Below, piece by piece: positions 9,001-12,000 of a DNA stretch of 13,022 bases. The position numbers were made by a program. The stretch comes from a virus (lineage: Duplodnaviria; Heunggongvirae; Uroviricota; Caudoviricetes): the IMG/VR virus record IMGVR_UViG_2534681935_000012. One strand, given 5' to 3'. How positions within the stretch are numbered: the stretch's first letter is position 1; each line of letters opens with the position of its first letter.

Positions 9001-12000
9001 GCCGCAGGAATCAAAGAAAAGAATTTCGATTAAGCAAATATCACTTCAATAAATCGCTTTTAAGGCATCACAATCGCTCTGTGGTGAGGTAAGCACGTGC
9101 AAGGTATACCGATAAGCAGCGAGAATGAAAAATGCGTCAGAATGCGTTTGAGGAGGTTTTAAGAAATGAGTACGATAGCTGAGCTTGTCAGGGCTAATTT
9201 TCGTGAAGAGTTGGTGCGTTGGTATCGGTATCGTTCATCGTCCAGTTTGCCGCTTGATGAGTTGTATGAGCATTCACCTGCCGCACGACGCTATCCGCGT
9301 GACCGTGTTCTTCGACGGTTGTTCAAACTCAACAATGAGTTTCAGCGCAACAGAATTATCCGGAGTCTGGATTTTAAGTGAAGGAGTGAGCATGAGCGAC
9401 CTATCATTAACCCAGCCAAAGCTAAAAGAATGTCCGTTTTGCGGCGGTAATGCTCGTCTGTGGGTTGAGGCCGGAATAAATATTGATGTGTGGGGCTATG
9501 CAGAATGTGACCTCTGTGAAGCCAGGGTGGCATGGGCACCATCAGTTGCTGCGGCTACTGAAAAATGGAACCGGAGAGCAGGAGATGAAGCAAACCTTTC
9601 TGCTTCGCAACGAAGCAATCAGAAATAACGCCATAGACGCCATTCTCTCACTACCCATCGACGACAAGTCACCCCACGAAGTCCACGTTAAAGAACCCAA
9701 GCGCAGCAAAGCGCAGAATGACCGCATGTGGCCGATGCTGAACGATGTTTCGCGTCAGGTGCTATGGCATGGTCAACGGCTGGCGCCGGAAGACTGGAAA
9801 GACCTGTTCACTGCCCTGTGGCTTAAGACCAAAAAACTGGAGCAAAGAAGTGCGCCTGGTATCGACGGTGGCGTTGTCATGCTTGGCGTGCGTACCAGCA
9901 AAATGCGAAAGGCCAGCATGACTGAGCTTATCGAAATCATGTTCTGGTTCGGCTCAGAGCGCAACGTGCGGTGGAGTGATGACTCCCGGCGAGAGTATGA
10001 ATGGTCACAACGAAAAGGGAAGGCTGCATGACTATCAAATCAAATACGCCAGCACACGACAAGGACTGCTGGCAAACGCCGCTCTGGCTTTTTGATGCGC
10101 TGGATATTGAGTTTGGATTCTGGCTGGATTCAGCTGCGAGCGACAAAAACGCTCTGTGCGCTCACTGGCTAACTGAGGCTGACGACGCGCTAAATTCTGA
10201 GTGGATAAGCCACGGTGCAATCTGGAATAACCCACCGTACAGCAATATCAGGCCGTGGGTGGAAAAAGCCGCTGAGCAGTGCATACAACAGCGACAGACG
10301 GTAGTGATGCTTGTGCCAGAGGATATGTCTGTCGGATGGTTCAGCAAGGCTCTGGAGAGTGTTGACGAAGTTCGCATCATCACTGATGGACGGATTAATT
10401 TTATCGAACCATCGACAGGGCTGGAGAAGAAGGGAAACAGCAAAGGCTCAATGTTGCTGATTTGGCGACCGTTCATCAGTCCTCGACGGATGTTTACTAC
10501 CGTATCCAAAGCGGCATTGATGGCGATCGGGCTGGGCGTCAGGAGGGCTGCATGAGGCGACAGCGACGAAGTATCACCGACATCATCTGCGAAAACTGCA
10601 AATACCTTCCAACGAAACGCTCCAGAAATAAACGCAAGCCAATCCCAAAAGAATCTGACGTAAAAACCTTCAATTACACGGCTCACCTGTGGGATATCCG
10701 GTGGCTAAGACATCGTGCGAGGAAAACAAGGTGATTGACGTGATGATTTATTCGGGGCTATATTCCTCAAACGCCAGCAAAATCTGGCGTCGGGATTGGC
10801 GTCCTGGATAGAGACCGCGACAGATACACGCCGCGAGCGTGTTTTTTATTGTCGTATGCACGCGCACATCTGAATTATGGTGGGCTGTGTGGGGGCGGAG
10901 AGATCCGCGCCGGTCGGTTTCCCGGTTACGCCAACCCTGCACAGTTCACCACCAGACGATTGGCGTCGTCGGTGGTGAGTTATTAAGAAACCACCAGAGG
11001 GCGTCATTATGACAACTAAAATTTCTGTTGAAACTCTCTCCCCGATCACCCATAACCAGATTCCTGTTATTACCACCGAACTTTTGGCGCAGCTTTACGG
11101 CACTGAGCCGGTGCGTATTCGCCAGAATCATCATGAGAACAAAGTACGCTTCGTTGAAGGGAAACACTTTTTCAAAGTTGTTGGTAATGACCTTAAAGAA
11201 TTGCGGGTAGCTTTAAACTACTCACAAAATTTGCGGGTTACTTTAAGTAACTCACAAAATTTGCGGGTTACTTTAAGTAACTCACAAAATTTGCAACCAT
11301 CTTTAAGAGGGTTACAAATTTCCCCGAAAGCCCGCTCCCTCATCCTCTGGACAGAACGCGGCGCAGCCCGTCACGCAAAAATGCTCGAAACCGATCGGGC
11401 GTGGGAAGTGTTCGAAAAACTGGAAGACTGCTATTTCAGCCAGTGCGAGAAAAATACTGGCAAACAAGAGAAGAAGCTCAACGGGCTTTCCGCAAAAGAA
11501 ACAGACAGCCTTGTATGGCTGTGGGATTATGCCAACCGCTCACAGGCATTGTTCCGTGAGTTGTATCCCGCATTAAAACTGATTCAGTCTGGCTATTCCG
11601 GCATATGCCACGACTACGGCTATGAGTTCTCGTATATCATCGGGAGGGCGAGGGGCGTTTTAATTAATCACACGCGGGATATAGATATTTATGAGCCTGA
11701 CGGGCCGACGAACCTTCTGGCATGGGAAAGGCTTAAGAACAAAGAGTTGCCGCCTTCACTGCATCGCTACTGACAATTGACAACTTAACAAACCCAGCTT
11801 CGGCTGGGTTTTTTATTGCTGAATTTTCAATGTGAGAGGACATGACAATGAATGAGCTGATAAATAGCAATGCCATCAAAATGACAAGCATTGAAATCGC
11901 TGAGTTGGTGGGAAGCCAACACGGTAATGTCAGAATATCAATAGAACGTCTGGCAAAGCGTGGGGTGATTCAACTTCCTTCAATGCAAAAAGTTGAAAAT

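Follow-up and report, generated by a model that had tools for sequence, protein, structure and literature searches.

Neighbours by probable mosaic descent: lar, ninB and an orphan dam in the nin region of a Shiga-toxin prophage

A small Lar-like gene and an orphan Dam-type methyltransferase gene flank ninB in a 13,022-nucleotide (nt) stretch of Caudoviricetes DNA (IMG/VR record IMGVR_UViG_2534681935_000012; the whole stretch is called the window below). The question raised by this locus is whether the two flanking genes, lar and dam, form an anti-restriction block around ninB, as the original prediction proposed. The window is a 100% match to Stx2a_WGPS4 and a 99.9% match to phage 1717. Phages 1717 and 2851, like many Escherichia coli O157:H7 chromosomes (TW14359 and EC4115 among them), share the 1.7 kb around lar-ninB-dam with the window at 100% identity. 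Judged by these matches, the window comes from a lambdoid Shiga-toxin (Stx) prophage of E. coli O157:H7 and covers its immunity, replication and nin region. Our best explanation, to which we assign a probability of roughly 80%, is that the locus is a standard delayed-early rightward nin region with three separately exchangeable genes, dam, ninB (or orf) and lar, and that mosaic descent, not co-selection as an anti-restriction unit, brought lar and dam together.

The opposing view is that lar and dam were selected together, with Lar disarming type I restriction and Dam masking type II sites that contain GATC. Both family names are linked to restriction evasion, no homologue of lambda ral was found in the window, N-cIII leftward region included, and the two genes are nearly always together in a near-identical Stx-phage segment. 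All 80 of the 80 IMG/VR loci with this lar allele keep DUF7301-lar-ninB in a fixed geometry, and all but one or two continue to dam-ninE. In the phage collection, this lar is accompanied by dam in ∼114 of 119 records. However, the 80 loci are at least 96% identical, so the co-occurrence is confined to what would be one DNA segment inherited by descent.

Outside the Stx-phage segment, lar and dam separate in both directions. In Sf101 and mEp043, a lambda-type ninB precedes the same dam allele (98.9% identical) and lar is missing, while L081 has the order lar-ninB-ninE without dam. Across the phage collection, 244 records hold this dam allele (at least 95% identity), compared with 119 for this lar. 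In L095, a lar allele 44% identical to that of the window overlaps a ninB 36% identical to the window's, and ninE follows directly, again without dam. A Salmonella lar allele (P0006, 46% identical), which was drawn from a large protein search with Lar (at least six proteins), has the same 44-nt ninB overlap in six genome contexts; dam is absent from five of these and frameshifted in the sixth. We also surveyed 41 diverged Lar clusters by scanning two genes on each side against Pfam. A PF05869 methyltransferase stood beside lar in 0 of the 41, one cluster had NinB and one a C5 methylase within two genes, and ∼4 were near any recombination gene; the other neighbours were a mix of replication/recombination genes and homing endonucleases. 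Thus, the co-occurrence of lar and dam across independent, diverged lineages that would mark a co-selected block was not found. A block faces two further difficulties in that GATC is already methylated by the host Dam and that a delayed-early position is too late to protect an infecting genome; whether Lar counters restriction is also contested (PMC4041452). We consider a coordinated block unlikely. The family assignments and the adjacency on which the original prediction relied hold up, whereas the functional unit does not, since lar and dam assort independently.

The gene content of the locus is well documented. In E. coli O157:H7 TW14359, the NCBI Prokaryotic Genome Annotation Pipeline (PGAP) calls the identical four genes with the same overlaps, together with a DUF7301 family protein upstream, and names the four products Lar family restriction alleviation protein, recombination protein NinB, phage N-6-adenine-methyltransferase and NinE family protein. 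Phage RefSeq records agree with PGAP on lar, NinB, the methyltransferase and NinE; some older phage records show different, longer frames or a "hypothetical protein" at the lar position. The lar, ninB, dam and ninE genes and their family names are therefore already known, both in RefSeq and in papers on Stx phages. The features of the locus are as follows, with lengths in amino acids (aa).

9166..9381, + strand: DUF7301 family gene (PF23975, 91.4 bits; phrog_1785 match; PGAP call)
9392..9628, + strand: Lar-family gene, 78 aa (PF14354, TIGR03655, phrog_599; PGAP call)
9566..9584, + strand: WNRR(AG) codons of lar together with the ninB ribosome-binding site, TGGAACCGGAGAGCAGGAG (direct reading; junction comparison with the Salmonella allele, L094 and L095)
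9585..10031, + strand: ninB/orf recombination mediator, 148 aa (PF05772, phrog_72; PGAP call)
10018..10031, + strand: left junction repeat GGAAGGCTGCATGA at the ninB/dam boundary (direct repeat family D4)
10028..10555, + strand: phage Dam-type N6-adenine DNA methyltransferase, 175 aa (PF05869, TIGR01712; PADLOC best match oMTase)
10229..10240, + strand: codons of the NPPY catalytic motif IV, AAC CCA CCG TAC (direct reading; conserved with respect to VT2-Sakai Dam)
10542..10555, + strand: right junction repeat GGAGGGCTGCATGA at the dam/ninE boundary (direct repeat family D4)
10552..10734, + strand: ninE, 60 aa (PF05322, 147.8 bits; 95% identical to lambda NinE)

The ninB stop and the dam ATG (10028) overlap in the sequence ATGA, and so do the dam stop and the ninE ATG (10552). 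A direct repeat of 14 nt marks both ends of dam (GGAAGGCTGCATGA, 10018-10031; GGAGGGCTGCATGA, 10542-10555), and the two copies are 93% identical. The shared junction motif, GGGCTGCATGA, is also present at the lambda ninB/ninC and ninC/ninD junctions, again with ATGA stop/start coupling. In L081, which lacks dam, ninB is joined directly to ninE at a motif of the GGGCTGCATGA type, and a dam-less junction is present in Salmonella prophages as well. Because the motif at both ends of dam also forms the lambda and the dam-less L081 junctions, dam is, by this sequence comparison, one of the usual interchangeable cassettes that lambdoid nin regions have in the ninB-ninE slot. We propose that the short conserved junction sequences permit dam to be gained or lost, and that dam fills the slot that lambda gives to ninC and ninD. 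The lambda order is ren-ninB-ninC-ninD-ninE, with neither a Lar-type nor a Dam-type gene, which bears out the earlier statement that these genes are not part of the lambda nin region.

The methyltransferase itself was readily classified. Its 175-aa open reading frame (ORF) is intact, without a frameshift or stop, and contains LDSAAS at aa 33-38 and NPPY at aa 68-71 (nt 10229-10240). The protein matches PF05869 with 216.4 bits (cut-off 28.1; profile positions 1-166 of 169) and the TIGR01712 equivalog with 264.2 bits (cut-off 97.05; profile positions 1-165 of 165), and the best PADLOC match is oMTase, "orphan methyltransferase". The neighbours of dam are NinB and NinE, and no restriction-modification nuclease was found by PADLOC or Pfam in 8478-10734. 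Taken together, the methyltransferase is, on these profile matches, a phage Dam-type orphan enzyme; the NPPY motif, the ATGA overlap with ninB and the missing adjoining endonuclease were all as first described. A sequence search of solved structures with Dam gave no match.

The closest relative is the VT2-Sakai enzyme M.EcoVT2Dam, an orphan methyltransferase with the reported target GATC (PMC6602927). The two proteins are identical at 173 of 175 positions, and the differences, I60V and L169Q, are both outside the motifs. We infer from this identity that the window enzyme would also be specific for GATC. GATC itself is about two-fold under-represented in the window (28 sites in 1-13022, compared with 50-55 expected), and a GATC-free stretch of 2.7 kb (7858-10524) spans lar, ninB and most of dam. 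GATC-free regions in prophages of Shiga-toxin-producing E. coli were noted by a published methylome study (PMC6602927). Damaged dam copies occur elsewhere, with frameshifts in Stx2a_F349 and in Salmonella L173, and the L173 copy (4158-4681) was skipped by the gene caller.

The second gene, lar, runs from an ATG at 9392 to a TAA at 9626-9628 and is preceded by GAAGGAG at 9380-9386. The encoded protein has CPFCGG at aa 14-19 (nt 9431-9448), CDLC at aa 39-42 (nt 9506-9517) and WNRR at aa 59-62 (nt 9566-9577), that is, a four-cysteine zinc ribbon (C14, C17, C39, C42) followed by a C-terminal WNRR. It matches PF14354 with 37.8 bits (cut-off 28.6), TIGR03655 with 61.4 bits (cut-off 39.6, E = 7.6e-17) and phrog_599 with E = 1.5e-38. 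The proposed search with family profiles thus placed both proteins, Lar and Dam, above the curated cut-offs of PF14354, TIGR03655, PF05869 and TIGR01712. Among the diverged relatives, WNxR is present in 41 of 41 and the second CxxC in 38 of 41, and WNxR was absent from the search pattern used. These criteria make the small protein a zinc ribbon of the Lar family, for which an anti-restriction activity would follow from family membership only. The gene is short, overlaps ninB and is drawn in other frames or as a "hypothetical protein" in older records, all of which could point to a chance open frame that overprints the ninB start. We rejected this explanation as hardly credible, given significant matches in three independent family libraries, the conservation of the motifs just described and a good upstream ribosome-binding site.

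What Lar does is a more difficult question. The sole member of the family that has been studied experimentally is Lar/RalR of the Rac prophage in E. coli K-12, which is 36% identical to the window protein over 58 aa; C14, C17, C39 and C42 align with C9, C12, C30 and C33, and WNRR aligns with WNKR. RalR was reported to be a non-specific DNase toxin whose K52Q mutant is inactive (PMC4041452), and this raises the prospect that the window protein is likewise the toxin of a type I toxin-antitoxin pair, particularly as the asparagines (N51/N60) and the basic residues (K52/R61) align along with the four cysteines. However, the protein scores 28.7 bits against the RalR equivalog NF007260, below the cut-off of 113, and of the six RalR positions at which changes reduce toxicity, one is identical and three are conservative in the window protein. 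No complementarity of at least 14 nt to the lar coding region (9392-9628), and no inverted-repeat arm of 13-14 nt or more within it, was found anywhere in the window, which leaves no RalA-like antitoxin candidate, and the lar region has no Rfam match. Moreover, the window lar is part of an operon and overlaps the gene that follows it, an arrangement not shared by ralR/ralA. We do not favour a toxin and regard it as very unlikely.

The overlap of lar with ninB merits closer inspection. ninB runs from an ATG at 9585 to a TGA at 10029-10031 and encodes a protein that covers the entire PF05772 profile (163.9 bits, cut-off 23.8, positions 1-131 of 131), matches phrog_72 and is 43% identical to lambda NinB. 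Its first 44 nt (9585-9628) are shared with lar in a different frame, exactly as originally described and as also called by PGAP. The Lar domain ends at WNRR, and the Pfam and TIGR coverage both end at residue 63. Beyond this point lar has no stop codon of its own and is read on in the alternative frame of ninB until a stop is reached, such that the last 15 aa of Lar are the product of reading into ninB. The WNRR(AG) codons, TGGAACCGGAGAGCAGGAG, hold the ninB ribosome-binding site. Even lar alleles that are only 44-47% identical, from E. coli and Salmonella, retain the overlap, with a length of 44 or 29 nt. Three such alleles have the tail AGDEANLSASQRSNQK or a near-identical version in common, and DNA identity between the diverged alleles (the Salmonella allele, L094 and L095) starts exactly at TGGAA, i.e., at the WNRR codons. 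L094 (3995-4677) carries a lar allele with 46% identity to that of the window, but ninB breaks off there after its first 16 codons and a DUF1367 gene comes next; from its sequence, this arrangement is a recombination junction just within ninB. In the 933W reference (L087, NC_000924.1, 2001-2235), the lar-like gene is split over two frames by a 1-nt length difference.

This conserved arrangement lends itself to an explanation in which the genes serve phage recombination and replication. Lar would be a partner or translational regulator of NinB, and over-methylation by Dam would block MutH incision and relax mismatch-repair barriers, or would tune Dam-sensitive promoters or lysogeny. Besides the overlap and the location of the ninB ribosome-binding site, such a role could draw on the position of Rac lar/ralR next to recT, on the general occurrence of Lar-like genes among replication and recombination genes (DnaB, SSB, RecT, YqaJ), and on a requirement for host Dam in stable 933W lysogeny, as cited in PMC3342100. 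Against it, the survey of diverged Lar clusters placed NinB beside 1 of 41 and any recombination gene near ∼4, the proximity of genes in the early regions of phages says little, and recombination at the conserved WNRR/ninB sequence would be a simpler source of the shared lar tail. With its support drawn from sequence and gene position, we find a shared recombination role very unlikely. The narrower proposal, that lar is tied functionally to ninB and not to restriction, and that Lar zinc ribbons may act as accessory factors or translational governors of phage recombination, retains a slim chance because the ninB ribosome-binding site lies in the WNRR codons, the overlap is kept across alleles of 44-47% identity, and the Rac homologue lies beside recT.

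Returning to the exchangeable-gene explanation, the three products can be given tentative roles. Dam, essentially M.EcoVT2Dam, would methylate the adenine of GATC and most likely tops up this methylation on rapidly replicating phage DNA. NinB/Orf would act as a recombination mediator. Lar is predicted to fold as a four-cysteine zinc ribbon followed by a helix that carries WNRR, with the end of its coding region supplying the ninB ribosome-binding site, and most likely acts on host type I restriction-modification complexes as proposed for Rac Lar, a role suggested by family membership only. The missing ral is compatible with lar as its replacement. A lambda cIII thermoregulator RNA element lies at 889-947 on the - strand (RF01804, 88.5 bits) and indicates a cIII-type gene of the leftward operon within the window. 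On the + strand, a crude consensus scan found no promoter- or terminator-like site between a hairpin at 8236-8263 and a site at 10735. Because the genes show no such signals of their own, the early rightward transcript most likely includes lar, ninB and dam when the phage grows lytically or is induced. A moron model, with separate promoters for lar or dam, was rejected as no sites above chance were present in 8264-10734.

Several points weigh against parts of this explanation. The evidence for an anti-restriction activity in the Lar family is itself contested. Restriction alleviation by Rac Lar was reported by King & Murray 1995 (as cited in PMC4041452), which conflicts with Guo et al. 2014 (PMC4041452), who found no inhibition of restriction-modification by Rac Lar/RalR. 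The family function is thus in dispute, with its one studied member 36% identical to the window protein; the original premise that Lar proteins alleviate type I restriction survives as a family label and is weaker than first stated. An AlphaFold2 model of Lar, built from a 4-sequence alignment, has three strands and a helix with low confidence (mean predicted local distance difference test score 57.7, predicted template modelling score 0.34), and a sequence search of solved structures with Lar returned only insignificant zinc-ribbon ribosomal proteins (E of at least 0.1). With regard to Dam, the orphan status assumed at the outset is correct, while a role in protection from or modulation of restriction is undercut, as the host Dam already supplies GATC methylation; the benefit of a phage Dam is predicted and unproven. 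In the related phage phi24B, the dam product was detected in lysogen cultures, its transcript was altered on induction, and the authors suggest a role in lysogeny (PMC3342100). By analogy with phi24B, dam may have a role in the lysogen. Finally, the assignment to the early rightward operon depends on a scan that was, as said, crude.

We describe dam as a facultative cassette of the ninB-ninE slot and assign it to no defence-evasion island. Profiling the methylome of a lysogen in a dam+ host, which had been suggested as a check, would be uninformative on the activity of the phage enzyme. The "Lar family" label rests on one contested experiment. The result for lar-ninB-dam has little significance beyond bookkeeping. 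If the conserved lar-ninB coupling were functional, a widespread family of small phage proteins would be reassigned and "restriction alleviation" would be a misleading label.

The surroundings of the locus contain additional features. A homing-endonuclease-like gene with HNH_3 and AP2 domains (7545-8263, +) lies immediately downstream of a DnaB-type helicase gene and terminates in the hairpin at 8236-8263, which is strong and bidirectional. In phage 1717, an ISEc8 element is inserted just 5' of the copy of this gene. Upstream of lar, two DUF7301 paralogues (8478-8699 and 9166-9381, +) that are ∼44% identical flank a phrog_343 gene (8677-9033), and Salmonella prophages have a DUF7301 and a PF26207 gene at the equivalent position. 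Between ninE and the antirepressor gene are an isrK RNA (RF01394, 74.7 bits, 10771-10847, +) and a C4-type antisense RNA (RF01695, 66.7 bits, 10873-10956, +). The isrK assignment is consistent with a promoter-like site (10735-10764) and a terminator-like hairpin (10826-10842). The antirepressor ORF (11009-11773; ORF6N and P22_AR_C) contains a 30-nt tandem repeat of 3.1 copies with 92% identity (11201-11294, +), which adds peptide repeats inside the ORF6N domain.

Comparison with known systems places each element. The nearest counterpart of the window Dam is M.EcoVT2Dam of the Stx2 phage VT2-Sakai, also found in 933W and HK97, with which it shares the PF05869/TIGR01712 assignment and the ATGA-coupled position between ninB and ninE; the window allele, known from sequence, departs from it at two residues. 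The Dam methyltransferases of T1-type phages belong to the same PF05869 family of small orphan N6-adenine enzymes, and the 933W record notes similarity of its methyltransferase to the HP1 and T1 methylases, but the T1-like enzymes are only ∼30-35% identical to the window Dam and come from unrelated genome contexts. Rac Lar/RalR shares the Pfam and NCBIfam Lar assignment and the aligned cysteines and WN(K/R)R with the window protein. In contrast to the latter, it lacks the 15-aa tail that derives from the ninB overlap, and the window protein falls below the RalR equivalog cut-off; Rac lar follows recT with the antisense-type small RNA ralA nearby, whereas the window lar overlaps ninB and has no complementary RNA candidate. 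Lambda Ral is comparable in its proposed role, by analogy, of modulating type I restriction-modification, such that lar could stand in for ral, although the proteins have no detectable similarity (E = 0.35) and ral is located in the pL operon whereas lar is in the nin region. Lastly, the lambda nin region (ren-ninB-ninC-ninD-ninE) provides the same ninB and ninE anchors and the same GGGCTGCATGA-type junction motif with ATGA coupling, but it has ninC and ninD where the window has dam, and ren where the window has the HNH endonuclease, the two DUF7301 genes, the phrog_343 gene and lar.

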